Assembly: GCA_017464525.1 (NCBI GenBank)
Contig: JAFTZM010000041.1
Span: forward strand, 12,435 to 76,434
Direction of reading: 5' to 3'
Length of the DNA: 64,000 bases
Source: Clostridia bacterium
GTDB taxonomy: Bacteria > Bacillota > Clostridia > Oscillospirales > QAKW01
Below the pieces are notes generated by a model. The model saw nothing but the letters and a program-made list of their open reading frames with translations, was not told where the DNA came from and searched no databases. The translations under genes were made by a program, and so were the position numbers. Shown in pieces: positions 13,420 through 58,867 of this stretch; position 1 is the first letter of the stretch; every line of letters begins with the position of its first letter.

Positions 13420-13448
13420 GGAAGCATCAAACAACGGAGGTGCTTCTC

Positions 13449-15011
13449 ATGATCGGCAACATGATCGCCAAGCTGCGTACCAACGCCAATTTATCCCAGG
13501 AGCAATTCGGGGCGCTCTTCGGCATTTCCCGTCAATCGGTGCAGAAATGGGAGAGCGGTGCTTCGGTGCCGGAACTGGAAAAGCTCATTAACATCGCAAA
13601 ATATTTCGATGTTTCTCTGGATGCGCTGGTGCTGGAAAGCGACACCCGCATCACCGAGGAACTGCGCTACAACAAAGAGATCAAGCCTAAATACGCCAAC
13701 CTCCACGAATGGGAATCCTACTCCTCCAATCTGCGAACAGAGTATCGGCAATGCATCGAAGAGGGGCTGGATATCGCCGCCTACGGCGATACTTTCGAGG
13801 CGGTCTCACGCCTGCCCAAGGGGGAGATCAAAGAGAAACTGGGCGATACCCTCTTCGAGGTAGTGCTCCACGCCAAAACCGCCGAAGGCTACCGCTACGT
13901 TGAGCCCTCCACCTTAGAGGAAATTCGCGCCCTCTGCAAAGAGCCGGTTGCCCTCCCCGCTCCCACCGATTTGGAAGAAAAGCTCCACGGCGCCTGGCTG
14001 GGGCGAATCTGCGGCTGTATGCTCGGCAAGACAGTGGAAGGAATCCGCACTAACGAGCTGATCCCCTTCCTGCAGGAAACAGGCAACTACCCCATGCACC
14101 GTTACATTCTGAAAAAAGACCTCAACGAAGAAATCCTCAATAAATACAAATTCCGCTTTGCCAAGCGTTGCTATGCCGATGCCATTTGCGGAATGCCCCC
14201 GGACGACGACACCAACTACATGGTGCTGGCGCAAATGCTATTGGGAAAATATGGGCGGGATTTCACCTCCTACGACGTCTCCCGCATCTGGCTCTCCCTC
14301 CAGCCCAAGGATGCCTACTGCACCGCCGAGCGGGTGGCCATCTGCAACTTTGTGAAGGGCTATGAGCCGCCCCAATCGGCGATCTATAAGAACCCCTTCC
14401 GGGAATGGATCGGTGCCCAGATCCGGGGCGACTATTTCGGCTACATCAACCCCGGTGATCCTGCCATGGCCGCCGAAATGGCCTTCCGGGATGCCTCCAT
14501 CTCCCACGTAAAGAACGGCATCTACGGCGAAATGTGGGTAGCCGCCATGCTGGCAGCCGCCGCCTGCACCGGCGATATCAAGACCATCCTTGCCGCAGGG
14601 CTTTCGGAGATTCCCCACACCTCCCGCCTCCACGAAGCCGTCACCGACATCATCAAAGGCTACGAAGCAGGCATCTCCCAAGAGACCTGCTTTGCCGATA
14701 TCCACGCCCGCTACGATGAATACACCTCCCACGGCTGGTGCCACACCATCTCCAATGCCATGATCGTGGCCGCCGCCCTCCTATACGGTGAGGGAGACTA
14801 CGGAAGATCCATCTGCATGGCGGTGGAGACCGGCTTTGATACCGATTGCAACGGCGCAACAGTCGGCTCCATTCTGGGGATGGCCAAGGGTAAAGCCTAC
14901 ATTGGCGCCCAATGGACCGCCCCCATCCAGGATACCCTCCATACCACCATCTTCGGGGTGGATTCCGTCAAAATTTCTGACTGTGTCAAAAAAACATTGG
15001 AGCATATCTAA
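13449..15011 (+). CDS. XRE-type HTH domain fused to an ADP-ribosylglycohydrolase (ARH/DraG-family) domain
   Basis: The start was moved to the ATG at 13449, with GGAGG 8 nt upstream. N-terminus: IAKLRTNANLSQEQFGALFGISRQSVQKWESG. ARH motifs: GAWLGRICGCMLGKTVEG, DDDTNYMVLA, GFDTDCNGATVGSILGM. Confidence 0.8.
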   Translation: MIGNMIAKLRTNANLSQEQFGALFGISRQSVQKWESGASVPELEKLINIAKYFDVSLDALVLESDTRITEELRYNKEIKPKYANLHEWESYSSNLRTEYRQCIEEGLDIAAYGDTFEAVSRLPKGEIKEKLGDTLFEVVLHAKTAEGYRYVEPSTLEEIRALCKEPVALPAPTDLEEKLHGAWLGRICGCMLGKTVEGIRTNELIPFLQETGNYPMHRYILKKDLNEEILNKYKFRFAKRCYADAICGMPPDDDTNYMVLAQMLLGKYGRDFTSYDVSRIWLSLQPKDAYCTAERVAICNFVKGYEPPQSAIYKNPFREWIGAQIRGDYFGYINPGDPAMAAEMAFRDASISHVKNGIYGEMWVAAMLAAAACTGDIKTILAAGLSEIPHTSRLHEAVTDIIKGYEAGISQETCFADIHARYDEYTSHGWCHTISNAMIVAAALLYGEGDYGRSICMAVETGFDTDCNGATVGSILGMAKGKAYIGAQWTAPIQDTLHTTIFGVDSVKISDCVKKTLEHI

Positions 15012-18664: not shown

Positions 18665-18696
18665 AGAAGCACAGAGCATGATCGCTCTGTGCTTCT
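18665..18696. terminator. Hairpin between convergent genes
   Basis: AGAAGCACAGAGC-ATGATC-GCTCTGTGCTTCT forms a 13-bp stem. The U-tracts are weak. Confidence 0.5.
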
Positions 18697-18697
18697 T

Positions 18698-19030
18698 TCA
18701 CTTTACTTGAAACAATTTATAGGGGGTATTCCGCTCCTTACATTTGGTTACAACAAACCCCGTTCCGGAGGAAACGCCGTCCCAGAAGGCCAGCACCAGA
18801 TCGCTATAGTCGATAATCTGGATATTCCGGCGCAGGGGGGCACTGCGGCCATAGGTATCATAATCCGGCAGAAATTCCGTCAGCTTGATGCCATGCTCCA
18901 AAGCGTAGCGGCGGGCGCACCGATCGATGCCCCGGGCGCCGCCGGAAACGATCTCGGTGGTCTCGGGAGGCAGATATTTTTCCAGGTCGTGCACCTCCAG
19001 GCTGCGGGAGCCGATCACCGCTACCTTCAT
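18698..19030 (-). CDS. SLOG-superfamily (DprA/Smf-like Rossmann) small protein
   Basis: 110 aa. MKVAVIGSRS...IVSGGARGIDRCARRYA resembles the DprA/SLOG GGARGID motif. An ATGA overlap couples it to the upstream gene. Confidence 0.55.
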   Translation of the reverse strand: MKVAVIGSRSLEVHDLEKYLPPETTEIVSGGARGIDRCARRYALEHGIKLTEFLPDYDTYGRSAPLRRNIQIIDYSDLVLAFWDGVSSGTGFVVTKCKERNTPYKLFQVK

Positions 19031-20133
19031 ACCTCTGCCTCCTTTTGGAGAAGGTGCTCCTCTAAGATATTCTTCTCCTTGTCCACAACAGCGAAATGAA
19101 TACCCTCGGGGGTGAAGTGATAGGTGGCAGCCCGAAATTCAGCGCCGTGCTTGCCATCGGGGGAACCGCCGATGCCGATGGGCCAGCGCTGCCCCAGCTG
19201 ATCCAGCTCGCCACCCGGCAAAAAAAGACCGGGGTTGTGGGTATGGCCGCTGATCATGATATCCGGCTGGATCTCCTCCCGCAGAGCCCGGCACCAACTT
19301 CCGTAAAGCTCCTGCTCAATATCAAAGGGCGGGCGGGGCACATGGCAGAAGGGATGGTGCACGATGACCGCCTTATGCCGGATGGCGGGATCATTGTATT
19401 CCCCGGCGGCGACCACCTCCTTGAAGAATTCATCTTCTGCCTCCCGGAACTGATGGAAGCATACGGTGCCGTCGTATTCCTGGCTGGAATCCGGCTTGTC
19501 CTCCCCGCAATCCAGCACCAGCGCCCAGAAGGAGCCGGCCCGAACGGTAAAGTAGGTGCGCCCCTCCCGATGGGGGATATAGCCCCCTAAAATTTCGGCC
19601 CGGCGGCCCCGGGAATCGTGGTTGCCCCGGGCAAAGATCACCGGGATCTCCCCCTTGGTCACGGTGCCGGTCAGTTTCAAAATACGCAGGCAGTGCTCCT
19701 CACGATCCAGAAAATTAGTAATATCCCCGTTCAGGATCAAAGCATCCATATCCGGCAGGATCCCGGCCGCTTCTATGGCAACATCGATGGCGCCGTGCAC
19801 ATCGGAAGCGTGGAAAAACTTAGGGTCTTCCCCGATCTTACGGAAGGAAAGGGTGTATTGCTGCTCCGGCTCCGATTCGGGGAAATAGGGCTTGCGATCG
19901 ATGATGGTGCGCCAGCAAAGGGTATAGCAGCCCGCCTCATCCAGCGCCTGCTGGGGCACGGTGATGCGGTGCACCCCATTATCGGAACGGATGGTGCCGG
20001 CGAAATGGTCATAGTAATTGCGCTCCCCTACCCTGATCCAAAGGAGGGCGGGCTTTTCCATGGGGACCAGGATCTGATACTCCCGGTCGAAGAGATAAAG
20101 AGTCGGATAATAAGTAAAAATTTCTGGCAGCAT
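19027..20133 (-). CDS. Calcineurin-like metallophosphoesterase
   Basis: Motifs DVHG, GDITNF, GNHDSRG and GHTHNPG. I trimmed the start to MLPEIF (20133, SD GAGGAAG). The track's longer N-terminus overlaps the upstream gene. Confidence 0.75.
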   Translation of the reverse strand: MLPEIFTYYPTLYLFDREYQILVPMEKPALLWIRVGERNYYDHFAGTIRSDNGVHRITVPQQALDEAGCYTLCWRTIIDRKPYFPESEPEQQYTLSFRKIGEDPKFFHASDVHGAIDVAIEAAGILPDMDALILNGDITNFLDREEHCLRILKLTGTVTKGEIPVIFARGNHDSRGRRAEILGGYIPHREGRTYFTVRAGSFWALVLDCGEDKPDSSQEYDGTVCFHQFREAEDEFFKEVVAAGEYNDPAIRHKAVIVHHPFCHVPRPPFDIEQELYGSWCRALREEIQPDIMISGHTHNPGLFLPGGELDQLGQRWPIGIGGSPDGKHGAEFRAATYHFTPEGIHFAVVDKEKNILEEHLLQKEAEV

Positions 20134-20144
20134 TTTAAACTTCC

Positions 20145-20846
20145 TCACAAATTTGCTTTTTTCGCTTGGGTGTGCTGATCCTTGCGGGGAATGCGGTAAA
20201 GCTTTCCTTCCTTGATAAAACGGGCGCCGGTCTGCTTGAAATGAAAGGGGATCCCCTTTTCCCGGCATTGATCCCGCAGGGAAAGGATCCATTCAAAATC
20301 ACAGGGGCGCGCGTCGTTGCCGCTTTCGCCCCCTGCGGTCAGCCCTTCGATGGCCTCGGTCAACTTCCCATGAAAATCAATGGGAGAGAGCAGCGGCTCG
20401 CAGATGATCTCCTTATGCCGTGCAGGAAGGGCCAGCAACGCCGGCAGACGCCGATCCGCCTCCTCCTGATTTTCCATAGTAGCCAGGATGGTCACATGAG
20501 GGTATCCTTCCCCCCAATCCGGCGGCAGGCAGTCCTGCACCCGCAGGATGCGCTTGGTGATGATCATGAAATGCAGATCGCTCCGCATCCGGATCATATC
20601 CCATGCCTCCTCTCGCCAGGGATCCGCTTCTTCCAAAAAGAAATCGCTGGTCATGGAGGCAAAGACCACCGTACCGGCAGGAATTTTAAAATCCCCCCGG
20701 CGGTTGATGGCGATGGGCAGATGAAAATCCTTGTTCCGGGTCACCTCCGAAGCATCCCGCCCCACCGAGCCGTCCCGGCGGTAAACGTAGCAATAGCGGC
20801 AGCCTTCGGAATATTTACGGCAACCGTGCCAGGGATTCCATACCAT
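20145..20846 (-). CDS. DUF5131 (phage Gp37/Gp68-type) family protein
   Basis: The N-terminal WNPWHGCRKYSEGCRYCY is the family hallmark as I recall it. The start is at 20846, behind GAGGTG. Confidence 0.6.
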   Translation of the reverse strand: MVWNPWHGCRKYSEGCRYCYVYRRDGSVGRDASEVTRNKDFHLPIAINRRGDFKIPAGTVVFASMTSDFFLEEADPWREEAWDMIRMRSDLHFMIITKRILRVQDCLPPDWGEGYPHVTILATMENQEEADRRLPALLALPARHKEIICEPLLSPIDFHGKLTEAIEGLTAGGESGNDARPCDFEWILSLRDQCREKGIPFHFKQTGARFIKEGKLYRIPRKDQHTQAKKANL

Positions 20847-20882
20847 CCATCTCACCTCTGGCCCAATTATAGCACATCTTTT

Positions 20883-21881: not shown

Positions 21882-24800
21882 TCAGGCACCCAGGATCTCA
21901 TCGATCTCCCGACCGGTGAGGTGATTTTTGGAGATGACCGTTTCCACCAACCGATCAATGGCCGGCTTATGGGCGGAAATGATCTCCACCGCCTTTTCCA
22001 GCTGGGCAGCTAAGATCCGGTTGACCGCCCGGCGGATCTCTCCGCTCTGATCAGCCCGGGGATCTGCCACGGCCAGGCCGAATTCCTCGTCCATACCGTA
22101 GGTGCACAGCAACTGCTGGGCCAGATGGGTAGCAGATTGCAGGTCGCCGCTGGGGCCGGTGGAAACACCGTCCTTTTCGCCATAGTAGACCAGCTCTGCC
22201 GCCCGACCGCCCAGAGAGGTACGGATCCGGGCCAACAGCTCATCCTTGGTATAGATGGCCTTGCCCTCGTTATCGCCGTGCTGCATATAGCCGCCATGGT
22301 TGCTGCGGGCGACCACTGTGAGATAAGAGGGGGTCTCGCCGCTGTGCCAGCAGATAAAGGCGTGACCGGCTTCATGGCGTGCCACCCGCTCCAGCTGGGA
22401 GATATCCCAATTTTTCTTTTCGCCGCTGTTGAAGGTTTCGAAGGCCTCCTCCAGAATGGCATCGGTCACCTTCTGGTTTCCGTCCCGGATGGACATTCTG
22501 AGGGCCAGCTCGATCACCGATTCCAGCTCGGCCAGGCTCATACCGGTGGAGCGCACCGCCAAATTATCAAACTTGGCTTCGCTGATCTCAAAGGCCGGAT
22601 TATGGGCGATCTTCAGCTTCAGATACTGCACCCGGTCATCCCGATCGGGCAGGTCGATATACACCCGGCGGTCAAAACGGCGCATCAGAGCAGGATCCAG
22701 GCTCTTTTCCCGGCCCGGCTCAATATCAAAATTGGTAGCAGCCAGCACAAATACTGGCTTGGAGGGATCGTTCTTAAAGCCATCCATTTCGGTCAGGAAG
22801 GCGGTGAGGGTGGCTTCAGCCGCCCCGGCATTATCGCCGCCCCGCCGCTCCTTGGCGATGGCATCGATCTCATCGATAAAGAGGATGGAGGGGGCATACT
22901 TCCGGGCGGTGCGGAAAAGCTCATGCACCTTTTCGGGACCTTCCCCTACATATTTCTTCAAAAATTGATTCCCCTCGGCGGTGATAAAGGTCACATCCGA
23001 CTCGCTGGCCATAGCCTTTGCCAGCAGCGTTTTACCGGTGCCCGGCGGGCCGTAGAGCAGCACGCCCTTGGGTGCCTGAACCCCGGTACGAAGGTACTTT
23101 TTGGGATTTTTCAGGTATTCCACAAAGTATTTCAGTTCTTTTTTGGCATCCTCTGCCCCGATCACCTGATCAAACCGCAGGTTGGGCTTGGATACATTGC
23201 TGAGCACATTTTCGGAATCGCCGGGATCCAGCGCCACCTTTAATGCAAAATCAAAGAGGCGGATCTCGGCACACTTGCCGCCCTCCGAAAGGGACTGGGC
23301 GGTTTCGAAGGTAACGATCTTATTGGATTTAGCCAGGTTGTTCATGCTGTTTTGCTGGTGTAGCTTGCGGCAGATCTCCTGCAGATCCCCCTCAAAGGTA
23401 TCTGTTGCAACGGAGATCACCCCCCGCACCCCCTGGCGCAGGAAGGAGATCCGCTCCTCGCTGTTATAGACCCGCTCGTCAGTCTCCAGCAGATAGATCG
23501 GCAGATCCCGGAATTTTTCCCGCACGAACCAGAAGAAATCCCGAGCCTTGGAGCGCACATCCTCCACATTGAGGACGCCGCCGTCTGCCTCCTCGCCGTT
23601 CAAAAGATCCAGCAGGATCAGCTGAACGTCCTCTTTTTTCAAAAGCTTTGCAGCCTCCTCGGGGTTCTCGGCGGAAAGAATATTGCAGAACCCGGCCTTG
23701 GCCCGGCAGCTCTCGGCGATCTGCTCCGAAGCAAAGACCAGAACCTCCGGCTTCTCCTGATGCCGGAAAAGGCTCATCAGCTCTTCATTCTCCTCCGGCA
23801 GCTCTACCCGGATCCGGATGGACTCGATATCATTCACATCGGTGGCCACGCTATCGGTGGAGACCAGCCGGAACAGCTCGTATAATTCATCATCAAAGAA
23901 GGCTTCGGCCCGGCTGCGCACCGTTCTGGCATCGGCAGCGCCGCCCTCGGCAAAAAGCAGGGCAGTATGTACCGTTTCATCGATCTCTACCTGAATGCCG
24001 ATCTCCTTTTCAAAGTTCCCGGCGTGGCGAAGCACCTCCCGCTTGGCAATATCCCGCAGATTATGAGCAGAGATATGGTTGAACATCACCACATTACCGG
24101 AAGCAAACCGGGAGCAGATGGCTGCCGGGAAGAAGGGGGCGCCGGTGGCGGGATTCACATCCTGCTGCAGAGCCTTCAGGATCACCTTCCGGGAAAGATC
24201 GGAAAAATCACCGGAATCGCTGTTTTCATAAAGGGGGCGCCCGGCATTGGTGGTAAAGATAATGATGGCATCCGAGAAGGAGACCTCCGTATCGGTGAAA
24301 TTATCCCGCAGGCGGCCGGCATCCAGCAACTGTAAAAAGAGGTGGATCACGCTGATATGCGCCTTTTCGATCTCATCGAAGAGCAGCACGCACTTAGGAT
24401 TTTTCTCCACAAACCCGGTGATGTTACCGGCCTTACCGTTTTTATAGACCTTATCGGAGCCGCAGAATTCGATGGTGGCTTCGTTATCGGCATATTCGCT
24501 CATATCTGCCCGCAGGAAGGGAAGCTCCAGAATTTCAGCCGCCTTTTCGGCCAGGAAGGTCTTCCCCACGCCCGGAGGGCCTGCAAAGAGATAGGTGGCC
24601 CGGGGGCGCACCCGCTTTTTATCGGTCATGGAAAGCAGCTCGCCCTGGAAGTAGCCGGTGGTAAAGACACTCACCGCATTATCCTGGCCGAACACCGCTT
24701 CGGAAAGGGCCTTCTGGATCTCCTTCACCCGATGGATGGTGGCAGCAACAGCAGCCTTAGATCCGCCCGGTTCTTCAGCAGGCTTTTCTTCCTTTTTAGC

Positions 24801-25259
24801 AGGCGCTGCTTCCTCTTCCATGATCATCTGCACTTTTTCAGGAGCAGCACCGCCCGCCTTGTTCACGGACAGGCATTGCTTCAAAATAGCGCTGGGCTCC
24901 TGCAGCAGGCAATCCAGCATCAGATCGGCAGTGACCTCTGCAAGCCCCAGCTCTTTGGCACGGCCCTTGGCCACCATCAGCTTGGTCTGGAAGTAAATAT
25001 TATCCCAAGCGCTCATCTGGTGATCTTTGATCTGCGCCAGCAGATCCCGCTGCAGCCGGGGCAGATCCAGATGGGCGGCCTCCGCCATCTTCAAAAAGCC
25101 GGTGAGCTCCTGCTTACTTTCATTTTTATACTTCGGATCGGTCACATAGGTGATCACCGTCACCATCAACTTTTCCGCTGTGATGGTACCGCCCTCTCCG
25201 ATCTTTCTTGCACTTTCGATAAACAGATCCAATAATCTGCTGTTTTGCATTTCAGCCAT
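21882..25259 (-). CDS. Soluble multi-domain AAA+ protease: N-terminal helical domain + ClpA/B-D2-type AAA + REC-like domain + FtsH-type AAA + M41 zinc peptidase, with no TM segment
   Basis: 1125 aa. The first AAA module has GPPGVGKT (aa 227-233) and VLLFDEIEKAHISVIHLFLQLLDAGRLRD (Clp D2 pattern). Residues about 505-600 read VLVFAS...LILLDL...IYLLET (receiver-like). The second AAA module has GPPGTGKT (737-743), ILFIDEIDA and LDPALMRRFDRRV (FtsH-type SRH). The peptidase shows HEAGHA (22362-22376) and GPSGDLQSAT. Confidence 0.8.
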   Translation of the reverse strand: MAEMQNSRLLDLFIESARKIGEGGTITAEKLMVTVITYVTDPKYKNESKQELTGFLKMAEAAHLDLPRLQRDLLAQIKDHQMSAWDNIYFQTKLMVAKGRAKELGLAEVTADLMLDCLLQEPSAILKQCLSVNKAGGAAPEKVQMIMEEEAAPAKKEEKPAEEPGGSKAAVAATIHRVKEIQKALSEAVFGQDNAVSVFTTGYFQGELLSMTDKKRVRPRATYLFAGPPGVGKTFLAEKAAEILELPFLRADMSEYADNEATIEFCGSDKVYKNGKAGNITGFVEKNPKCVLLFDEIEKAHISVIHLFLQLLDAGRLRDNFTDTEVSFSDAIIIFTTNAGRPLYENSDSGDFSDLSRKVILKALQQDVNPATGAPFFPAAICSRFASGNVVMFNHISAHNLRDIAKREVLRHAGNFEKEIGIQVEIDETVHTALLFAEGGAADARTVRSRAEAFFDDELYELFRLVSTDSVATDVNDIESIRIRVELPEENEELMSLFRHQEKPEVLVFASEQIAESCRAKAGFCNILSAENPEEAAKLLKKEDVQLILLDLLNGEEADGGVLNVEDVRSKARDFFWFVREKFRDLPIYLLETDERVYNSEERISFLRQGVRGVISVATDTFEGDLQEICRKLHQQNSMNNLAKSNKIVTFETAQSLSEGGKCAEIRLFDFALKVALDPGDSENVLSNVSKPNLRFDQVIGAEDAKKELKYFVEYLKNPKKYLRTGVQAPKGVLLYGPPGTGKTLLAKAMASESDVTFITAEGNQFLKKYVGEGPEKVHELFRTARKYAPSILFIDEIDAIAKERRGGDNAGAAEATLTAFLTEMDGFKNDPSKPVFVLAATNFDIEPGREKSLDPALMRRFDRRVYIDLPDRDDRVQYLKLKIAHNPAFEISEAKFDNLAVRSTGMSLAELESVIELALRMSIRDGNQKVTDAILEEAFETFNSGEKKNWDISQLERVARHEAGHAFICWHSGETPSYLTVVARSNHGGYMQHGDNEGKAIYTKDELLARIRTSLGGRAAELVYYGEKDGVSTGPSGDLQSATHLAQQLLCTYGMDEEFGLAVADPRADQSGEIRRAVNRILAAQLEKAVEIISAHKPAIDRLVETVISKNHLTGREIDEILGA

Positions 25260-25326
25260 TTTGATTACCCTCGCTATTTATGGTATGATATATTATTATA
25301 TAAACAAAATACGACATTGTCAATTT

Positions 25327-26478
25327 TTAATTGCTCCACAAGGAGCAGATCGCCCGGATCAGCTTTTCTTCGCCGATGGTATCCACCTCGTCCACCACCT
25401 GAATGCCCATATCCTCGGCCCGGGTGTGGATATATTCCCCCTTCAGCTTCATTTTTTCCAGCTCGGAGGCAACAAGAACTCTTTTGGCATATTTTCCGCC
25501 GAACCGGCGGGCAACGGTATTGAGCTTATACAGCTCGTCCACCTCCATCTGCCCGTTTTTGCAGGAAATGAAGATAGGTACCAGCCCCTTCATCAGCAAA
25601 ACATCCACTTCATTGCGCACCTGAGATTCCTCATCCCCGGAAAAGCCATGCCAATCGATCATCCCACCGCACAAAATATCGTTATAAAGCGGGCGCCCTT
25701 TTTTATCAGTCTGCCGTGAAGCAAGAAGGGTGATCTTCAGTTCCAGAATGGTGCCAGCCTTGGAAAGGCAGCGCTGCACCTGCTCATTTTTATAGATGAT
25801 CCGCCCCTCCTCGCAGCGGATCACCGCCGCCAGTTCCAATTCCTTCAATAGCGCCGGATCCGGCATCTGGGGCGGCTGCTCCAGCCCCGCCAGCAGCGTG
25901 ATCTGGCTGTTCCAATGGGTGGCATCCCGGCGGCAAATCTCCCACATATCGTTAATATCTGCGCAGAAATCCTCACTGAAATCCCAGCGATAGGTACCCA
26001 GCGTATCCTCTTCCTCATAAACGATCCGGCCGCCGTAGGCCCAGATGTTCTCTTCAATCGTCATGACAGCCGGCTCCGCCGCCATCAGGTTTCCATCGGC
26101 ATCGCAATCGGTCAGACTACCGTTGCGAATATTAAAGCGGTGCAGCTGCACCCGCTCGCTGCCGAAGTATTCAAATAAAATGCCGATGGCCACTAAGTAA
26201 AGATCATCGCCCCCCGCCAGATCGAAGGTGCAGACTCCATACTTTTCCACCAGCGCCATCAGCTCTTCTATAATATTGGTCAGGTTGTTTTTATTCACCA
26301 CCCGGTGATCAAATTCCACCGGGATCTCCCGGCCCCGGGCGATCCGTTGATAGTTTTCTATGGCCCGCAGCATTTGCTTGCGGTTACTGCCGATGAAGAT
26401 CACATGATCCGGCCGGCAGAGCAGCGTGCTCACGATATTTTCTATGGCATTATCATCAAAAAATTCAATAACGGTCAT
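25327..26478 (-). CDS. CARF-domain protein with a C-terminal PD-(D/E)xK-like nuclease fold (Card1/Can2 / DUF1887-like)
   Basis: 383 aa from MTVIEFFDD. The track's upstream extension lies in AT-rich promoter DNA. The N-terminal Rossmann-like region has HVIFIGSN and FDLAGGDDLYLVA. The C-terminus has EVDVLLMKGLVPIFISCKNG, a D-x13-S-x-K motif. I assign the family from memory of the DUF1887/Card1 architecture. Confidence 0.55.
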   Translation of the reverse strand: MTVIEFFDDNAIENIVSTLLCRPDHVIFIGSNRKQMLRAIENYQRIARGREIPVEFDHRVVNKNNLTNIIEELMALVEKYGVCTFDLAGGDDLYLVAIGILFEYFGSERVQLHRFNIRNGSLTDCDADGNLMAAEPAVMTIEENIWAYGGRIVYEEEDTLGTYRWDFSEDFCADINDMWEICRRDATHWNSQITLLAGLEQPPQMPDPALLKELELAAVIRCEEGRIIYKNEQVQRCLSKAGTILELKITLLASRQTDKKGRPLYNDILCGGMIDWHGFSGDEESQVRNEVDVLLMKGLVPIFISCKNGQMEVDELYKLNTVARRFGGKYAKRVLVASELEKMKLKGEYIHTRAEDMGIQVVDEVDTIGEEKLIRAICSLWSN

Positions 26479-26508
26479 TTTTCTATCCGATCCAACATTT
26501 TTTCTTCT

Positions 26509-26537
26509 ATTATAAAGGTCTTTAGATACAAAATCAA
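26509..26537 (-). promoter_or_regulatory. Promoter of the CARF / AAA-protease operon
   Basis: On the minus strand: TTGATT (26537-26532), a 17-nt spacer, then TATAAT (26514-26509), about 30 nt upstream of the ATG at 26478. Confidence 0.55.
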
Positions 26538-26930
26538 GAAAAAAAATAACCCCTGGCCGGTTGTGTCTTTCACCCACATCCAAGCCAAGGGTCATTGCTG
26601 TTCACTCTTGATATCTAACATCCTTTTAACCTCTCTTTCTACGGTTTTCTGCTGCCTTCTTCATCCGAATGCTCCCACACGTCTTTCTACCTTCCTCTTA
26701 AAGTGAGTTTCTCTCATGCGATAAATACTTCCTTTTGAAGGCTGCAGATGTTGTTCGGTTCTATTTTTTTAGCCCCGAACCGTCAGGCTGCTTACCTGTA
26801 CATTGGTATCACCCTTTCTTTGACTATATAATAGCATAATTTTTATCCACTTTCAATTCGCAATTTGTATAAAATTACCCGTTTTTATTTATATAAAACA
26901 CAGAAATTACGCGCTCCATCCAATTTTTTA

Positions 26931-26965: not shown

Positions 26966-27214
26966 GTTGAGCGTATAAAGACCCCGCCGATGTCATGCAT
27001 CGGCGGGGTCTTTCAGCCTGTCAATGCGAAGTATTGGATGTAATCCACCGTAGGTGGCATGTAATCAATCCGAAGGAAGAAACATACAAAGCTTACGCTT
27101 TGATGACATACAGTTCACAAAGCGAACTGATTACATACTCGCTAACGCGAGATTACATACCAATCCTTCGGATTGGATAAAAAAAGAACGAAGCGATTGC
27201 TTCGTTCTTTTTTT
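26966..27214 (+). ncRNA. Candidate structured small RNA (about 250 nt) with four ATGTAATC/GATTACAT octamers
   Basis: It is bracketed by the promoter at 26931-26959 and the terminator at 27179-27214. A 16-bp hairpin lies at 26977-27013. Octamers occur at 27038, 27059 (ATGTAATC) and at 27129, 27151 (GATTACAT). Short hairpins are interleaved: CCACC-GTA-GGTGG, CAAAGC-TTAC-GCTTTG, CTCGC-TAAC-GCGAG and CAATCC-TTCG-GATTGG. I see no RBS-led ORF. Confidence 0.45.
27179..27214. terminator. Bidirectional terminator shared by the candidate sRNA (+) and the tRNA-Val gene (-)
   Basis: A7, then AGAACGAAGC-GATT-GCTTCGTTCT, then T7. Confidence 0.8.
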
Positions 27215-27290
27215 GGTGGAGACAACTGGAATCGAACCAGTGACCCCTTGCATGTCAAGCAAGTACTCTAACCAGCTGAGCTATGCCTCC
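27214..27290 (-). tRNA. tRNA-Val (anticodon GAC), with CCA encoded
   Basis: The reverse complement is GGAGGCATAGCTCAGCTGGTTAGAGTACTTGCTTGACATGCAAGGGGTCACTGGTTCGATTCCAGTTGTCTCCACCA. I folded the cloverleaf by hand: a 7-bp acceptor stem with one G-U pair, anticodon loop TTGACAT, and T-loop TTCGATT. Confidence 0.9.
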
Positions 27291-27302
27291 ACGGGCTTGT
27301 TT

Positions 27303-27331
27303 ATTATACAATACGGGGGCTGAATTGTCAA
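27303..27331 (-). promoter_or_regulatory. Consensus promoter for tRNA-Val
   Basis: On the minus strand: TTGACA (27331-27326), a 17-nt spacer, then TATAAT (27308-27303). The -10 element ends about 12 nt before the mature tRNA 5' end. Confidence 0.7.
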
Positions 27332-41235: not shown

Positions 41236-42978
41236 TTAATCGTCGTCCTTCATCTTATCCTTTTCGCTCAGAAGGTCGAAGGTTACCAAGCAATGATGGG
41301 TCTTGGCCAGATTATTCCGTTCCGGAGCGTAGACAAAACCTTCCGCACGCATATACGCATTCCAGCGGCGATGCTCCAGCCGGCGCAGGGCCCAGAGCTC
41401 CTTTTCGCCCCTTTTTTCGGGGGGCAGCTCAATGCCGGGCATTCCGCAGGCGATCTTCATCCGTTTATGAAGAGCAGAGGCCACAGAGGAGCGGTAATTA
41501 TATTCATACCGCCAGAAGGACTCCTCATCCCCCCATTTCAGATGGCGGGCCAGACCTTCCTCCTCCAAATCGCAATCCAGCACCACCTCATAGGAATAGG
41601 TGGACTTCAGATCGCCGATAAAGCTGATCTCATAGGATTGGCCGGAATGGTTGGTGATGCCGGTCAGGGCGGCGCTCTTTTCGGAATTATACACGATGGC
41701 CTGAATAATGGGCGTGATCCCCATCTGCTCAAAGAGCACCCGCAGCCGGACAGCCACCTTAATATTCAGCTCATCATTCCCCAATGCCACCATTACATAG
41801 GTCACATCCTTCAGAGAACGGATGGCCTCGGTAAATTCGGCGGTCTCCACATCCATATCGCCATGAACAGTGATCTGGTGCATGGCCTCGCCGTCATCGG
41901 TAAAGTTGCCGTTTTGCGCCATCAACTCGGGGCAGAGAGCCCGGAACTTGGAGGGCGCCTTTTGATCCTTATCGAAGGAATCGATATGGACCTGATAGCC
42001 ATCCATCTGGCAGAACCAGGCCAGGGCCTTGGTCATTTCGGTGCCGTGGTTGCCCATGCCTACCACAACGGCAGAGATCCTGCCATCCTTGGCATTTTCA
42101 AAGATCTTCAGGCCGGTTTCGTTCAGGTTGCGATAGATGAGGGACTGCACCTCATTGATGCGGCGCACCTTGATACAGCCGCTCTCTGCATTGGCCAGCA
42201 GCATTTCCGCCTCCACCTGAGTGGAAAGAACATAAAGATGGGTATTTTCCCGGGTGCGGTATAGCTCCATCAGCTTTAAGGCCTGGGAGATATTCTCCGA
42301 TTGATCGGCGCCCATGGTAAAGAAATGAAGGGGGCTGCTTTTACTGTGCATGGAAAAATTGATGGTCACAATATCCTTTTTAAAGCACACCGCGCCCAGT
42401 TCCCGGGCCTTTTCCACCATCTCATAGCTTTGCTCTTCCTCTTTTTCAAAGACATCGCTGAACACAAACATCCGTTTACCGGGCTGCCGGGAGATGCTTT
42501 CTGCCAGCGCCAGGGTCTTTTCGTTCAGCTCGGAAAAAATATAGGCTTCGGTTCTGAAATTGAATAAAAACTTCTGGTAAGCGGTGATGTTTTTGAAAAA
42601 GGACAGTACAAATCCGAAGGTCAGCACCGGCGCCAGCACAAACAGAATGGATAAAAAGATGCTATAGCCGGAATAAAGGGCCGGGGAAAGTGCCGCGACG
42701 CTTTGGGCGAGAAATTCAAAATCACTGTTCACCACAAAGAGGCAGATCATATTATAGATCGAAAGGAACAGCGCCTCTAAAAGACCGCCGCCGTTGGCCT
42801 TAGTTGTATTAATATAAATAGGAATAAACAGCAGCAGCGCAGATACCAGCACCCCTGCAAAGAGAATATTAGAGGGGGTAAACAGCCGGCCGCTGCGATA
42901 TTTTTTGCCGGTGAGAAATACCCCCGCCAATGCAACCAGCATCACCGCAATGGCAGCAAAAAAGCAAAAATTCCACAT
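41236..42978 (-). CDS. Membrane protein: 4 N-terminal TM helices + Rossmann (TrkA-N-like, GMGNHG) domain + C-terminal RyR domain
   Basis: 580 aa. ISAVVVGMGNHGTEMTKAL (GxGxxG). The C-terminus LEHRRWNAYMRAEGFVYAPERNNLAKTHHCLVTFDLLSEKDKMKD matches the RyR-domain pattern (EHxRW...GW/F.Y....d...K.Hp.Lv.fd.L...eK.kD). Confidence 0.6.
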   Translation of the reverse strand: MWNFCFFAAIAVMLVALAGVFLTGKKYRSGRLFTPSNILFAGVLVSALLLFIPIYINTTKANGGGLLEALFLSIYNMICLFVVNSDFEFLAQSVAALSPALYSGYSIFLSILFVLAPVLTFGFVLSFFKNITAYQKFLFNFRTEAYIFSELNEKTLALAESISRQPGKRMFVFSDVFEKEEEQSYEMVEKARELGAVCFKKDIVTINFSMHSKSSPLHFFTMGADQSENISQALKLMELYRTRENTHLYVLSTQVEAEMLLANAESGCIKVRRINEVQSLIYRNLNETGLKIFENAKDGRISAVVVGMGNHGTEMTKALAWFCQMDGYQVHIDSFDKDQKAPSKFRALCPELMAQNGNFTDDGEAMHQITVHGDMDVETAEFTEAIRSLKDVTYVMVALGNDELNIKVAVRLRVLFEQMGITPIIQAIVYNSEKSAALTGITNHSGQSYEISFIGDLKSTYSYEVVLDCDLEEEGLARHLKWGDEESFWRYEYNYRSSVASALHKRMKIACGMPGIELPPEKRGEKELWALRRLEHRRWNAYMRAEGFVYAPERNNLAKTHHCLVTFDLLSEKDKMKDDD

Positions 42979-42993: not shown

Positions 42994-43203
42994 TTACCGA
43001 TCGATTTCTTTATCGCCGTCGCCGCCGGGGCGAACCTTGGTGCGGGCAAGTGCTTCCTGCACCGCCTGGTAGGCCTGCACCTTTTCCAGGCAGGCATCGC
43101 AGACAGCAATATGGCTATTGACCTTTTTGGCCAATGCAACAGTTTCTTCATTGATCTGATCGATCATCGCAAAGCGGATGATCTCCTCGGTAGTTAAATG
43201 CAT
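42994..43203 (-). CDS. Putative anti-sigma factor (zf-HC2-like H-x3-C-x2-C)
   Basis: 69 aa from MHLTTEEIIRF. It contains SHIAVCDACLEKV. Its start overlaps the sigma gene stop by 10 nt. Confidence 0.5.
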   Translation of the reverse strand: MHLTTEEIIRFAMIDQINEETVALAKKVNSHIAVCDACLEKVQAYQAVQEALARTKVRPGGDGDKEIDR

Positions 43204-43979
43204 GATTTCTTCTCCTTCCGCTTGATGAGCTGATTCATCCGATAGACCCAATCGCTGATGGCGCTTTTGGGTTTGCGGGTACCGTAAAAATCGCCGTAAT
43301 GCAGGCTGCCCCGCCGCACCCCGTTATAGGGTTCATCCAGCCGGCTCCGCAGCGCCTTGATATGGGTGGGATCCAAGGCCAGCCAGGGGATCTCCCGGGA
43401 CATGAGGATCAGCATTTCCAGCATGGTATCCAGCGTCAGGGCGGTGAATTTTTCCACGATCAGATCCGCAGTTTCGATCTTATCGATATCGTGGTAGGCA
43501 ATGAGCAGCATCTGGGCCATCCAGGTAAGGGGGATATGCACCTCCGAATCAGCGGTCATTACCGTGCGGAAGGCACGGTTCAGCCGGTCATCCCCCTGGC
43601 AGCTCTCCTCCTCGGGGGCGGGCTCTGCTTCGGGGATGGGATCCGCCTCATGCCGCAGCTCGGTCTTGCGGTAATCGATGAAGGCATTTTTCGCCACCGT
43701 AAACATCCAGGCCTGAAAGGCATCGGCAGATTTATCGGTATACCGCTCGTTGCGGTAAAAGCCGGTCACGCAATGGGTGAACAGGCTGAGATTGATCCGC
43801 TGCATGATATCCTCTTCATGCTCGCCGCCCTTCATCCGGGGATCGGTGTTGCATTGACGGACGATCCAGCCGAACAACACCCGGCGGGCCACCCGAAACA
43901 TGGTATCATAGCCGCCCTCCGGAGATTCCCATTCCGCCACGATCTTTTCATATTCTTCTTTTGTGAAATAACTACTCAT
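43194..43979 (-). CDS. ECF-like sigma-70 family RNA polymerase sigma factor
   Basis: I trimmed the start to MSSYFTKEEY (43979, SD AAGGAG). Region 2 reads FQAWMFTVAKNAFIDYRK. A region 4.2-like helix reads KSAISDWVYRMNQLIKRK. An acidic, proline-rich linker separates them. Confidence 0.7.
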   Translation of the reverse strand: MSSYFTKEEYEKIVAEWESPEGGYDTMFRVARRVLFGWIVRQCNTDPRMKGGEHEEDIMQRINLSLFTHCVTGFYRNERYTDKSADAFQAWMFTVAKNAFIDYRKTELRHEADPIPEAEPAPEEESCQGDDRLNRAFRTVMTADSEVHIPLTWMAQMLLIAYHDIDKIETADLIVEKFTALTLDTMLEMLILMSREIPWLALDPTHIKALRSRLDEPYNGVRRGSLHYGDFYGTRKPKSAISDWVYRMNQLIKRKEKKSCI

Positions 43980-44001
43980 GACAAAGGCTCCTTTTGCTGC
44001 C

Positions 44002-44030
44002 ATTATATCACAAACCCCCGGCCCTGACAA
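44002..44030 (-). promoter_or_regulatory. Promoter of the sigma / anti-sigma / RyR operon
   Basis: On the minus strand: TTGTCA (44030-44025), a 17-nt spacer, then TATAAT (44007-44002). Confidence 0.6.
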
Positions 44031-44085
44031 GAACCGGATCCTATTATTTAAAACGGAAGCAACGCAAATTTTTTCGCAAGGAAAT

Positions 44086-44157
44086 AAAAAAACGCCCAAG
44101 GGGCACCCTTTGCAAGGAAGAATACTCCTTATGAAGGGTGCCCCAAGGCGTTTTTTT
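44086..44157 (-). terminator. Long imperfect hairpin terminator closing the vWA-tubulin operon
   Basis: A7 (44086-92) and T7 (44151-57) flank the structure. An 11-bp GC-rich stem pairs GGGGCACCCTT (44100-110) with AAGGGTGCCCC (44134-144), and an outer stem extends it imperfectly. It overlaps the stop of the 83-aa gene. Confidence 0.75.
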
Positions 44158-44407
44158 AAAATAGCTTTTTGCGGAAGTCGCTCAGATCTTTTCCTAAGGT
44201 GATGGAAATGCTGTGCTGCTCTTCGGCGCAATTTTCACAGATGGTCTGGGACTCCTTGCTCAGCGCCTCGGACACAAAATTGGCCTCATAGCCGGTGCCG
44301 ATAAAGAACTTATCGCAGCTATCGCAGGTATGCATCAGCTTGGGAACAAAGATCACACCGGCAATAATGACCACAACAGCCGCCGCAAGTGCAATGATTT
44401 TTTTCAT
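44156..44407 (-). CDS. Small membrane-anchored zinc-ribbon protein
   Basis: 83 aa. The N-terminal TM is MKKIIALAAAVVVIIAGVIFV, followed by CDSC...CENC. AAGGAG lies upstream, and there is a 14-nt gap to the 1823-aa gene. Confidence 0.55.
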   Translation of the reverse strand: MKKIIALAAAVVVIIAGVIFVPKLMHTCDSCDKFFIGTGYEANFVSEALSKESQTICENCAEEQHSISITLGKDLSDFRKKLF

Positions 44408-44421
44408 GTTTTTTCTCCTTA

Positions 44422-47400
44422 TTAAATCTTTTTCAGGAAGAAGGTGAGCACCCGGCGATCCGCCGCTGCCCGGTAGGTATAGCGGTTATCGGTACGCACG
44501 CCGGTCTCAAGGGCTGCAAACCGCAAGGCTTCGCCCAGCTTGCCTTCCTCGATCAGCAGTCTTTCTGCCTCGGCAAAGGCCGCATCGGAGCCGAATTTCA
44601 GGGAGATATTCAGCTGACCCCGAGCCAGGCTTTCGCAGATGATACTGCGGATCCGGCCGAGATCACAGTGTTCCAGGAACAGCCCGTGGCGGCGGTGGTA
44701 ATTGCACTTGACCGCCGTACATTCCGGCAGGGTATAGGGAACATCGGGGGTATGAGCATCTATCCGCAGCACCTCTTCGGTAGTGATACAGAAGAGGCTG
44801 TAGTCCACCGCATCGGAGAGGTTCTTTTCCGATTTGGTATCAGAACCGTCCCCCCAGGTAACATCCAGATGATAATAATCTCCCTCCAGCTTCACCAGGT
44901 TCCAGGCATGGGTGGTGCTGGTCACATAGGTACATTCGATGCCCAGCGCATTGAGCAAAAACTGCAGCGCTTTGGCATAGCCGGCGCAGACCGCCTTTTT
45001 ATTCACGAACACGCCGTAGATAGAGCGGAGGTCGTCTGTTACATTTCTGCGGGCCTCCTTGGGGATCTTCCGCTGGCGCTCCAGGCCGAGAGTATCGTAG
45101 TCCACCAAGGTGATGATGTTTTCGAATACCCGCTGCACCACCTCAAAATCGCTCATGGTATCGGTCACGGAATTCAGGAAGGGGCGCACCGCCTCCTCCA
45201 GCTTCTGCTGCCGCTGCTCCACCTCTTCGGGGGGCATACAGTACTCCAGCCGGATCTCCTTCAGCTCCTCGGTCTGGGGATCATAGGAGAAATCCGCATT
45301 ATACTTATACCAATAGATCTCCGGGTGGTCGGTCTCGATGCAATCCAGGATCTTCCGCAGCTGCCCCTGCTTCACCGGCAGGTTGAAGGGAATGACCTTC
45401 TGCTGATTTTCGATGGCATCCAGCAGCAGATCGTAGGCCTCCTGCTCCGGTCCGGCCAGCTGACCATGGGCAAAGGCGGGCAGAGTTTCCGTATTCCGCT
45501 GGATGGGACCCCGGATGGCCTCTTCGGCGGTGGGGATCACCGGTTCTTTCTTGGGGCGCCCGCCGCCGGTGGGCGGGGGAACCTCATCATCGGCGCCGGG
45601 AAGGCCCACGCCGCTATCAAAGGGGGTGATCACCGTCATTGCTCCGCAATATTCAGGGGCCAAGGGGGTCTCGGGATCCATAAAGGGGGTCATCCGGGTA
45701 ATGACCGTGCCGGTGGAGAAGGGATAATTGGCCCGGTAACGCAGGAAGCCGCGGCCGTATTCATCCTCCCGGCAGGCGGTGATGATCTCGGTGCGCTTAG
45801 CCAGGGCGGGCTCATTGATGAGGTAGGCATACTGCACCTCTACCCACTTGGCCATTCCTTCATAGACCTCCAGTTCCAGATCTCCGTATTTCCGGCGGAT
45901 CTTCCGGGCATTCCAATGGGTATACTGCCAGATATGGGTCAGCTCATGAGCCATAGTAAGGATGGATGCCATCCGGGGAGAGCCGTTCTCTACCAGCAAG
46001 GTAAAGTTATTATGCTTATCCCGGATCGCCACACCCAGCACCCGGCCATCCTGCCGGGGGGTGGGGGTAAAGTTATCCCCCAACCGTTTATGAAGGGTTC
46101 TGGCATTGACCATCTCCACCTTCACGCCCACATTCAGGCGGATGCCGAAGAAGGACTCCATATTGCGCTTCACATCGGCAAAGATCTTTTTAAATTCCTC
46201 ACCGGATCGGATGGCGGTCTTACCGCAATGGATACAGCGGTCCCGCCCATCGGCCAGGGTCTCATATTCCACGCCGAAGATCTCGGTGCCGCAGAAATCA
46301 CAATAGCGAGCATCCGGCTTTCCGGGACGGAAGGTGGCCTCGATGAGGGCGGCGATATTCTTGCCCTCTCTGGCTTTCCCTAAGGGATTCACTCCAAGGC
46401 CCAGCTGAGCCAGATATTCCCGGGTAGCCCGGGGATCAATACTGCCCGGCTCATTCACATCGCCGAAGAGCAGATAATACCGCTCATGGTAGGGCTTGCG
46501 GGGTGGGATCACACCAAAAAGCTCCTGCTGCCCATCGGGTGCGGCCTTGGTCTCGCTTTCGCCGGGGGCATTGATCTCGGGATCCACAGGATCTTCGGCC
46601 CCCTCCGGTACCTCGGGGATCTCAGGGGTCTCAGGCGTTTCGGGTGTCTCGGGCGTTTCGGGTGTTTCAGGGGTCTCCGGGATCTCGGGCGTTTCGGGTG
46701 TCTCCTCTTTGGGCTTCCGCTTGAACCAGTTCTTGATCCGCTCCATCAGAGGATTCTTCTTTTTCTTCTTAGGTGTCTCCCCGGCGGGTGTATCCTCAAA
46801 GGTCACCGGCGGCGGAGGCTCAGGAGGCGGATTGAGGCTATTGGCCAGAGTGGTGCCGTGCCAATCCAGATAATCAAACATGATCTCCAGGATCCGCTGC
46901 AGATTCCGCTCCACCGCAATGGTGAGACCCAGATCCAGCTGGCTGTCCTCAATAATATAGATGGATTGGGGCTGCAGGGTACAGCCCTCCCCTTCCAGAG
47001 AATAAGTAAGGGGCATTTCGGCCTGACCGGGCGTTACGGCCACGATAAAGGCCTGATTTTCCGCAAAGAGGGTCTTAAAGATCTCGTTGAAGAGCATGGC
47101 AACGGTCAGCCGCACCTGATCCCCCAGCCCCTCCGCAGGCAGATCGATCCGCAGGATCTCTTTATTCCGATAGAGGCGGACGGGGATGCCCTTGCCCTCG
47201 AAGGAGGTCTTTTTGGCGGTGGTGAAATCGTGGTAACGGTCCATCTGCAGGAAGCCGGGGGTCTCCACCCGGATATCCGCATATTCATGCACCAGCTTCA
47301 CCCCGGCCACATCCTTCACAGCCCCCACCGTATCGGAGGGCTGCAGACCCAGCAGGGTATATTGCCGCAGCTGGCGGTAGGAGGGGCGGCCGTTGATATG

Positions 47401-52036: not shown

Positions 52037-52075
52037 CCTGTTTTCACCTCCTCCGCAGCGTGGCTGCGGACTCTA

Positions 52076-55765: not shown

Positions 55766-55786
55766 AATCTGTTTCTCCTTTATTCG

Positions 55787-58003: not shown

Positions 58004-58086
58004 GAACATTCTCCTTTGCTGTTTTAAAATAAAACGGACGCCCTACTCATTTTTTCGCAAGGATCCGATTTTATTTGTATTTAATT

Positions 58087-58115
58087 ATTATATATTTATA
58101 TTAATACTAAGTCAA
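58087..58115 (-). promoter_or_regulatory. Promoter of the vWA-tubulin operon
   Basis: On the minus strand: TTGACT (58115-58110), a 17-nt spacer, then TATAAT (58092-58087). It lies in a very AT-rich 150-bp gap. Confidence 0.6.
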
Positions 58116-58135
58116 TATAAAATGTCGATTTAAGC

Positions 58136-58159
58136 AACAAAAAAGCCCCCGAAGAGGCT
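58136..58159 (-). terminator. Strand-specific terminator of the gltS-phosphatase unit
   Basis: On the minus strand AGCCTC-TTCG-GGGGCT (one G-U pair) is followed by TTTTTGTT, directly after the stop at 58160. The plus-strand version has a C-A mismatch. Confidence 0.65.
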
Positions 58160-58867
58160 TTAAATGTAATATGTTTCCTTGGTTTCCAGGCAAAGGCACC
58201 CCAGCCGGCCGCCGTATTCGGGATAGCCCGCCCCACAATCCAGATCGATCACATTCCCTCTGCCGAAAAAGATCTCCGGCCGGCGGCCGCCCAGATGGAG
58301 TGTCGGGGTATGGCCAATCAGAAATTTCACCCCCTCCGGCTGCCCTTTCAGCCGGAAGGTCTGATCAAAATTCTTGGGACGTTCCCACAGAAAATCCCGA
58401 TCCTCATAGGCGGTGATGGAATAATTGGCGCTGAACAGCTCCGAGAGGGTATGCATCAGCAGATAGGGCTGCCCCGCCACCGTCAGTTCCAGATAAAGGG
58501 GGCTTTTTTTCATAAATGCCAGGATCCTCTGCCGGTCGGCCTCAGCCAGAGCCATCAGGGAACGGTAGGTCTCCTCCCCGCCGTTGGCATACCAGCGGCG
58601 CACGGCGGCGGTGCCCAAGGGGCCTAAATTTCCGGGATCACGGAAGAGATAGGGCAGACTCTTGCAGGCCATATCCTCGTGGTTTCCCTTCAAACAGACC
58701 GTATTTTTCCGGTCCATCACATCCAGCAAAAGAGCGGCGCTCTCCGGCCCCCGATCGCACAGATCTCCCAAAAGATATAACTGATCCTCCCCGGAAAAAC
58801 AGATCAGCTCCAGCATCTGCCGGTATTCCGCAAATCGGCCGTGAAGGTCAGCCATTACATAAGTCAT
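58160..58867 (-). CDS. PPP-family metallophosphatase (Ser/Thr phosphatase / ApaH-PrpE-like)
   Basis: Start at MTYVMADLHGRF (58867). Motifs ADLHG, GDLCDRG, GNHE and GHTP. An ATGA overlap couples it to the gltS-like stop. Confidence 0.8.
   Translation of the reverse strand: MTYVMADLHGRFAEYRQMLELICFSGEDQLYLLGDLCDRGPESAALLLDVMDRKNTVCLKGNHEDMACKSLPYLFRDPGNLGPLGTAAVRRWYANGGEETYRSLMALAEADRQRILAFMKKSPLYLELTVAGQPYLLMHTLSELFSANYSITAYEDRDFLWERPKNFDQTFRLKGQPEGVKFLIGHTPTLHLGGRRPEIFFGRGNVIDLDCGAGYPEYGGRLGCLCLETKETYYI

Follow-up and report, generated by a model that had tools for sequence, protein, structure and literature searches.

A soluble AAA+ metalloprotease of Clostridia with two predicted motors, an embedded pseudo-receiver and neighbourhoods that suggest a conflict role

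The DNA analysed here (hereafter 'the window') is a stretch of 64,000 nucleotides (nt) from a Clostridia bacterium (Oscillospirales; QAKW01), positions 12,435 to 76,434 of contig JAFTZM010000041.1 in GenBank assembly GCA_017464525.1; coordinates below count from its first letter. Our subject is one open reading frame (ORF) on the reverse strand, 21882..25259 (-), which begins with ATG and encodes 1125 amino acids (aa). Its product (the 'fusion protein') is confirmed as a soluble chain in which an N-domain that is probably a divergent Clp_N is joined to a Clp/Hsp100 D2-type AAA module, a pseudo-receiver of CheY fold with a beta-hairpin, and a complete FtsH-type AAA module with an M41 peptidase. 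A first-pass annotation, made from the letters alone, had read the ORF as a soluble two-tier unfoldase-protease consisting of a helical N-domain, a ClpB-D2-type AAA module, a degenerate CheY-like segment and an FtsH-type AAA-M41 cassette. It missed the genomic context, which suggests a conflict or defence role rather than general quality control.

The gene carries expression signals of its own. A ribosome-binding site (GAGGG, 25268..25272 (-)) lies 8 nt 5' of the ATG, and a promoter with a perfect sigma-70 consensus (TTGACA-17-TATAAT, 12/12; 25295..25323 (-)) sits within the 67-nt gap that separates the fusion gene from an upstream gene encoding a CARF nuclease; transcription is therefore independent of that gene. 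Since the next strong terminator past the fusion gene is found only at 18665-18696, the gene may be co-transcribed with those downstream of it, which encode a PHO4-type transporter, a DUF5131 protein, a metallophosphoesterase and a SLOG/YAcAr protein.

The chain begins with an eight-helix N-domain resembling a divergent two-repeat Clp_N (aa 1-132; 24864..25259 (-)) and an acidic, lysine-rich linker predicted to be disordered (aa 133-166; 24762..24863 (-)). The Clp/Hsp100 D2-type AAA+ module that follows, with large and small subdomains (aa 167-466; 23862..24761 (-)), carries GPPGVGKT at residue 227, LLFDEIEKAH at 292 and LLDAGRLRD at 311; it matches Pfam AAA_2 over residues 218-350 (E 2.6e-32), and residues 175-434 align with the D2 region of the NCBIfam ClpA model (model positions 445-689, E 3.5e-44). 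After the pseudo-receiver (aa 480-644; 23328..23822 (-)), a long and highly conserved beta-hairpin (FETAQ...IRLFDF) and a linker (aa 645-690; 23190..23327 (-)) lead into the second ATPase, an FtsH-type classical AAA module (aa 691-948; 22416..23189 (-)), and the M41 zinc peptidase closes the chain (aa 949-1125 plus the stop codon; 21882..22415 (-)). Together these two C-terminal domains contain GPPGTGKT at 737, ILFIDEID at 792, the second region of homology (SRH) as LDPALMRRFDRRV at 854, and HEAGH at 962. Pfam AAA is matched over residues 733-869 (E 3.7e-51), Pfam Peptidase_M41 over 957-1122 (E 3.5e-28) and NCBIfam FtsH_fam over 680-1119 (E 7.9e-106), and residues 690-1122 align without a break to the cytosolic regions of FtsH among PDB sequences (E ~1e-76).

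Residue conservation was scored in 41 close relatives and in 107 representatives at 33-54% identity, the latter being the distant or diverse relatives of the residue counts below. No transmembrane (TM) helix was detected in the fusion protein, in which the top 19-residue Kyte-Doolittle mean (1.21) falls on the Walker B strand, and a TM-like segment is present in just one of the 107 representatives. The first-pass reading thus holds for the extent of the ORF, for every motif string quoted (all are in the translation), for the lack of a TM helix and, by profiles and structure prediction, for a Clp-type first ATPase followed by an FtsH-type AAA module with M41. Its narrower assignment of the first module to ClpB-D2 is refined: AAA_2 and the ClpA alignment support a D2-type module, and Pfam ClpB_D2-small finds no match in the protein, though the ClpA alignment extends through the small subdomain.

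A whole-chain AlphaFold2 model, built on 41 family members, reached a mean predicted local distance difference test score (pLDDT) of 80 and a predicted template-modelling score (pTM) of 0.47. It contains the eight-helix N-domain (residues 1-132), a disordered linker (135-164, pLDDT <50), the Clp-type module (167-466) and, at about 505-644, a (beta-alpha)5 domain with an extra strand before it (480-485) and a long beta-hairpin after it (647-675); the FtsH-type AAA module and M41 come last. Searched with Foldseek, the whole model returned FtsH, AFG3L2, YME1 and Ycf2-FtsHi (E ~1e-29), all through the C-terminal half. When residues 468-692 were modelled alone (pLDDT 86, pTM 0.77), all 50 of the 50 top PDB matches were response-regulator receiver domains, the best of them from the AAA+ activators LuxO, NtrC1, NtrX and HupR (target template-modelling score up to 0.76). 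The middle domain is accordingly modelled as a (beta-alpha)5 CheY fold. Structure prediction and structure search, which the first-pass annotation had suggested as follow-up, thus return an FtsH-type C-terminal half and a receiver in the middle; the proposed CheY-like segment has the receiver fold and a degenerate active site, and Pfam Response_reg does not match the fusion protein. The helical N-domain can be refined to a probable divergent Clp_N, because the top PDB matches of the family profile are N-domains of Clp proteins (ClpA with E 1e-3, followed by ClpC2, ClpC and Hsp104) and because two of 20 family members match Pfam Clp_N (best 2.5e-6; the fusion protein of the window is itself unmatched).

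The receiver is a pseudo-receiver in this clade, judging by its residues: apart from the aspartate, the active-site quintet is not in place. That aspartate, D551, occupies the phospho-acceptor position and is kept in 39 of 41 close and 93 of 107 distant relatives. The acidic pair after beta1 is replaced (A/S-S in the fusion protein), the lysine after beta5 is absent in this clade, and the Thr/Ser position after beta4 is threonine in 22 of the 41 close relatives; an aspartate at position 511 is present in 39 of the 107 distant ones. Conserved elsewhere are a motif in the long beta3-alpha3 loop (L563-N564-x-E566-D567...R573) and, very strongly, the beta-hairpin after the receiver.

The catalytic residues of both ATPases and of the peptidase are invariant or nearly so in both sets of relatives, and for that reason both motors and the peptidase look active. 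For the Clp-type module these are K233, D295/E296, N338, R384 and R445, with a pore at V271-Y272 whose position 272 is aromatic (Y, W or F) in 97 of 107; for the FtsH-type module they are K743, D796/E797, N843 and R860/R861 (the SRH arginines as listed are R860/R861/R864), with a pore at Y770-V771-G772 in which the aromatic at 770 and G772 are likewise invariant or nearly so. The M41 site is near-invariant, with zinc ligands H962 and H966, catalytic E963 and a third ligand, D1039, 73 residues past H966; HExxH and the third ligand are retained in 106 of the 107 diverse relatives. Among the 41 close relatives the Walker A and B motifs, sensor-1, the arginine finger, sensor-2, the pore-loop aromatics and HExxH...D are all invariant, and the 107 representatives have the same domain order with intact active sites. 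The conserved catalytic and pore residues of both modules, together with the zinc site, fit the two-tier unfoldase-protease first proposed, and the molecular reading is well supported: a soluble AAA+ metalloprotease with two motors, a pseudo-receiver embedded between them and a probable Clp_N crown.

Bacterial FtsH has an N-terminal membrane anchor of two TM helices together with a periplasmic domain. The fusion protein resembles it, and mitochondrial YME1 and AFG3L2, over residues 690-1122 (35-37% identity in Foldseek), where it has a classical AAA module with SRH followed by M41: Walker A and B motifs, an aromatic-hydrophobic-glycine pore loop, SRH arginines, HExxH and an aspartate as third ligand. 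It differs in having neither TM helices nor a periplasmic domain and in its roughly 690 extra N-terminal residues, which hold a second, non-FtsH ATPase of Clp type and the receiver. Its SRH also lacks the Pro-Gly of the usual RPGRFDR, and it scores well below the FtsH equivalog models (355 bits against a cutoff of 600 for TIGR01241; 225 against 1008 for PRK10733).

With ClpA/ClpC-ClpP the fusion protein shares a D2-type AAA module, a TTN sensor-1, an arginine finger, a DAR sensor-2 (compare GAR) and probably a Clp_N-type N-domain, as well as the logic of two ATPase tiers feeding a proteolytic chamber. Unlike class I Clp/Hsp100 proteins it has no D1, only the D2-type module, and it comes nowhere near their curated cutoffs. 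Its second tier is instead a classical-clade FtsH ATPase, a receiver lies between the tiers, and the peptidase is a fused M41 rather than a separate ClpP. The receiver invites a third comparison, with NtrC1, LuxO and NtrX, which, like the fusion protein, have a CheY-fold domain immediately before an AAA+ module. Unlike the receivers of those activators and of RssB and CpdR, that of the fusion protein is without the acidic pair and the lysine, sits inside a protease and has no evident histidine kinase partner.

The fusion is found at full length in more than 120 clusters at about 60% identity, every one of them from Clostridia/Oscillospiraceae-type metagenome-assembled genomes (MAGs), and a search with residues 1-690 found 462 representatives (50%-identity level) at E <= 1e-30, mostly of 1100-1200 aa and some of 1500-2100 aa. 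Genome scans, among the matches listed, placed full-architecture members in Oscillospiraceae, Acutalibacteraceae, Ruminococcus, Christensenellaceae and Lachnospiraceae, and further members in Tannerella, Victivallales and Vulcanimicrobiota MAGs. The distribution, whose mapping the first-pass annotation had also proposed, is that of a large family found mainly in Clostridia of gut and rumen; other phyla have some representatives, and the spread across phyla is patchy. Sources name its members solely 'AAA family ATPase'; no family model devoted to it came to light, and literature searches turned up nothing that describes the architecture or its neighbourhood. That the gene might be an assembly chimera, or a decaying and functionless fusion, has nothing in its favour beyond the unusual architecture. 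It is already refuted by the identical protein on seven independent contigs, by the more than 120 full-length clusters, and by the domain order and intact active sites that the 107 representatives share.

Variants at both ends of the chain bear on what the protein does. Three of five long members scanned (P0205, P0210 and P0222) bear an N-terminal Ser/Thr kinase in the same polypeptide; signals for TPR or beta-propeller repeats are weak in the long members and present in some of them. True tandem paralogues occur only at loci L023 and L024. The large genes flanking distant relatives had looked like further tandem AAA paralogues and were rejected as such: they lack Walker motifs and encode kinase-WD40/TPR proteins, grouped with the family by an artefact of single-linkage clustering. 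At the other end, two Tannerella members, of 934 and 963 aa (L018, 9500-12304; L022, 9443-12334), retain the middle domain as well as the two AAA modules and end just past the second ATPase; with neither M41 nor HExxH, they are natural variants devoid of the protease.

Those Tannerella proteins are an argument for seeing the family as mainly non-degradative unfoldases or remodellers that assemble, disassemble or activate partner effectors, with M41 as an accessory, and AAA+ ATPases of described conflict systems have indeed been proposed to be chaperone-type switches (PMC7159879). Retention of HExxH and the third ligand in 106 of 107 relatives argues instead for selection on proteolysis in almost all of the family, the protein of the window included, and we consider the non-degradative alternative rather improbable.

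Immediately upstream of the fusion gene and co-directional with it lies the gene for a Card1/Can2-like nuclease with CARF and PD-(D/E)xK domains (25327..26478 (-); its start is likely M40 of the ORF 25327..26595). It matches the PADLOC profile at 2.8e-30 and Pfam Card1_endonuc at 1.3e-5 (under that model's cutoff); its motif is D...S-C-K, not D...E-x-K, and no PDB sequence match was found at E 0.01. In the ten close contexts, that is, loci of relatives whose fusion proteins are 57-70% identical to one another, orthologues of this nuclease (39-45% identical) are upstream and co-directional five times. It could have passed for a coincidental neighbour on the strength of 27 species-genome loci without it, a view set aside once the five closer contexts showed the orthologue.

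The same nuclease, 67 nt away and recurring upstream of half of these diverged relatives, raises the idea that the fusion protein is an ancillary effector of cyclic-oligoadenylate signalling in type III CRISPR systems, acting with its neighbour. We regard this as very unlikely. Tandem- and direct-repeat scans found no CRISPR array in the 64-kb window, which also holds no Cas10, so that the nuclease is an orphan there, and the other annotated fusion loci showed no cas genes. Profile and structure searches revealed neither a CARF nor a SAVED sensor domain in the fusion protein, its gene has its own promoter, and the nuclease is absent from half of the close contexts and from all distant ones.

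Two observations concern the edges of such segments. About 620 nt upstream of the CARF-nuclease ORF is a tRNA-Val(GAC) gene (27214-27331 (-)) with its own perfect sigma-70 consensus promoter, which might mark an integration boundary of the segment with the nuclease and the fusion. At L171 (2264-4785), genes for a type IV secretion system coupling protein (TraG/VirD4-like), a stand-alone ClpP and a helix-turn-helix protein stand just upstream of the CARF nuclease, a YbjN pair and the fusion, which hints at a mobile-element setting.

Other genes recur as well. Seven of the ten close contexts encode a protein that has TM helices at the N-terminus, a GxGxxG region and an RyR-like C-terminus; small RyR proteins occur in six, TIR or TIR-STAND proteins in four, and pairs of YbjN-like proteins (about 158 aa) in four, as well as at five further loci. 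A Pfam census of 131 co-directional neighbours placed YbjN first (7), then RyR, TIR_2 and AAA_21. In the clade at or below 47% identity the flanking genes encode Ser/Thr kinases fused to WD40 or TPR repeats: eight loci (L014, L015, L016, L017, L020, L094, L099 and L104) have one to four co-directional genes for Hanks-type kinase-WD40/TPR proteins of 930-1370 aa, and kinase(-WD40/TPR) genes lie within 10 kb of a fusion relative at 14-15 of 44 loci.

The window has its own TM-RyR gene (41236..42978 (-)), which encodes 580 aa with three or four N-terminal TM helices, a Rossmann-like region containing VVVGMGNHG (GxGxxG) and an RyR-like C-terminus. It is 16 kb from the fusion gene and next to a giant transglutaminase-like gene, a relative of which abuts the fusion locus L173. 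Orthologues (42-49% identity) directly flank the fusion gene at L084, L172 and L173, and longer paralogues come after it at five loci; the protein may be a distal membrane partner of the soluble protease.

The explanation that best accounts for these observations, to which we give a probability of roughly 0.55, is a signal-gated, two-tier AAA+ metalloprotease working in modular conflict or defence neighbourhoods. We favour such a role because rare signalling and effector genes recur beside the fusion, N-terminal domains are swapped, kinases are fused to it and its phyletic spread is patchy. In its main rival, less likely and still to be taken seriously, the protein serves general quality control in the cytosol of Clostridia, as a soluble protease corresponding to FtsH or ClpCP, and its immune-type neighbours are coincidental. 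Intact and strongly conserved catalytic machinery agrees with housekeeping work, as do the strong promoter of the gene, its setting in the window and its wide occurrence in Oscillospiraceae-type MAGs; many loci have no recognisable defence neighbour, and none is obligate. Against it, Card1-like nucleases, RyR and TIR proteins and YbjN pairs recur beside copies that are only 57-70% identical, and conflict systems, unlike housekeeping proteases, typically show domain swaps, kinase fusions and patchy phyla.

Several points weigh against the explanation we prefer. The conflict or defence role is drawn from gene neighbourhood only; no neighbour is universal across fusion loci, the CARF-nuclease homologue is absent from the 27 species-genome loci of fusion relatives, and near the fusion gene in the window there is no kinase, TIR, small RyR or YbjN gene. 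The independently promoted gene is surrounded there by housekeeping genes, including those for an ABC transporter and a tRNA. Deposited phage and plasmid collections yielded no family member, the matches there being generic Clp-D2 ones (residues 177-463). Because the receiver has neither acidic pair nor lysine in this clade, canonical phosphotransfer is unlikely, and, since Tannerella has relatives with no M41 domain, proteolysis may not be the core activity. Finally, a pTM of 0.47 for the single chain leaves the inter-domain geometry loose.

Were the protein to work as a signal-gated protease in conflict loci, it would, by analogy with ClpA/ClpC-ClpP and FtsH, form a hexamer with the Clp-D2 ring above the FtsH ring, and aromatic pore loops in both rings would pull the substrate into the M41 chamber. 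The Clp_N crown would pick substrates or adaptors, for which the recurrent small YbjN-like proteins are candidates. ClpC N-domains dock adaptors and phospho-arginine marks, which parallels the association of the fusion family with kinases and YbjN proteins. Receiver control of AAA+ assembly or of substrate delivery is an established principle, as in NtrC1-type activators and in the ClpXP adaptors RssB and CpdR; on that model the pseudo-receiver between the tiers could be an allosteric gate coupling ring assembly, or hand-over from ring to ring, to an input. The input might be phosphorylation by the Ser/Thr kinases that flank relatives or are fused to them, or the binding of a partner. As the putative conserved engine of modular conflict or defence loci, the fusion protein would either destroy targets on activation or restrain toxic partners, such as the Card1-like CARF nuclease or TIR proteins.

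Among described systems, one near in outline is the FtsH ternary conflict protein of actinobacteria and deltaproteobacteria, in which the first of two FtsH-type domains is catalytically dead and which has MoxR and vWA partners (Kaur et al. 2020, PMC7159879). Both are two-ATPase proteins with FtsH-type AAA+ modules amid diversifying conflict-type neighbourhoods with TIR and other effectors. We rejected the ternary system as a match since the architecture differs: the first ATPase of the fusion protein is Clp-D2-type with intact Walker A and B motifs, M41 is present and no MoxR neighbour was seen. The IetAS system likewise pairs a classical AAA ATPase with protease activity, and the FtsH-type module matches the models for IetA/IteA (2.3e-48 in PADLOC, 1.5e-44 in NCBIfam). 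The score, however, is 152.6 bits against a cutoff of 510, the match covers the generic AAA module only and no IetS subtilase neighbours the gene; the PADLOC matches to IetA, DolB and TRIP13 were all rejected as generic AAA similarity.

Three further parts of the window deserve description. At 18698-20855 (-), downstream of the fusion gene and the PHO4-type transporter gene, a tight trio consists of genes for a DUF5131 protein, which matches the PADLOC candidate families PDC-M30B and PDC-M41B (E ~1e-28), for a metallophosphoesterase and for a SLOG/YAcAr (DprA-like) protein of 110 aa; the genes of the last two overlap by 4 nt, and the strong bidirectional terminator at 18665-18696 closes the trio. 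It was not seen beside the fusion at other loci and could be a separate, candidate nucleotide-centred system. Beyond the TM-RyR gene, 43194-58945 (-) is a run of large co-directional genes, several with relatives beside the fusion gene in other genomes. Their products are a weakly sigma-70-r2-like protein; the 1823-aa giant, in which a transglutaminase core goes with a linker of (T/I/V)PE tripeptide repeats (a 9-nt tandem repeat in the DNA, 46586-46711); a 716-aa protein of no assigned type; a 1229-aa Tubulin_2 (FtsZ-like) protein; one of 740 aa that resembles a vWA-like neighbour at L089; and a metallophosphoesterase resembling one at L084. Lastly, 13440-15011 (+) encodes an XRE-type helix-turn-helix domain fused to an ADP-ribosylglycohydrolase; at L089 a stand-alone ADP-ribosylglycohydrolase gene is immediately upstream of the fusion gene, beside a TIR protein gene.

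The usual list of energy-dependent proteases of bacteria comprises ClpXP/ClpAP/ClpCP, HslUV, Lon, FtsH and the proteasome. To these the family, abundant in human and animal gut Clostridia, would add a distinct and self-contained architecture, a soluble FtsH in which a Clp-type ring and an embedded receiver come before the ATPase ring, and it would be a natural model for the hand-over of substrates between rings of two different AAA+ clades. Its linkage to CARF, TIR, RyR and kinase-WD40 genes offers a testable entry to regulated proteolysis in bacterial immune signalling. We put forward, tentatively and as clearly the less probable case, that gut Firmicutes have a class of modular immune or conflict systems not yet described, with the fusion as its conserved engine. 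In such systems interchangeable sensor and signalling modules (Card1-like CARF nucleases, TIR/TIR-STAND proteins, RyR proteins, and sensors of the Ser/Thr kinase-WD40/TPR kind, some of them fused to the protease) would all act through a two-tier protease gated by its receiver. If true, this would amount to a bacterial counterpart of signal-licensed degradation by the proteasome, possibly with phospho-marks in the part that phospho-arginine has for ClpC.

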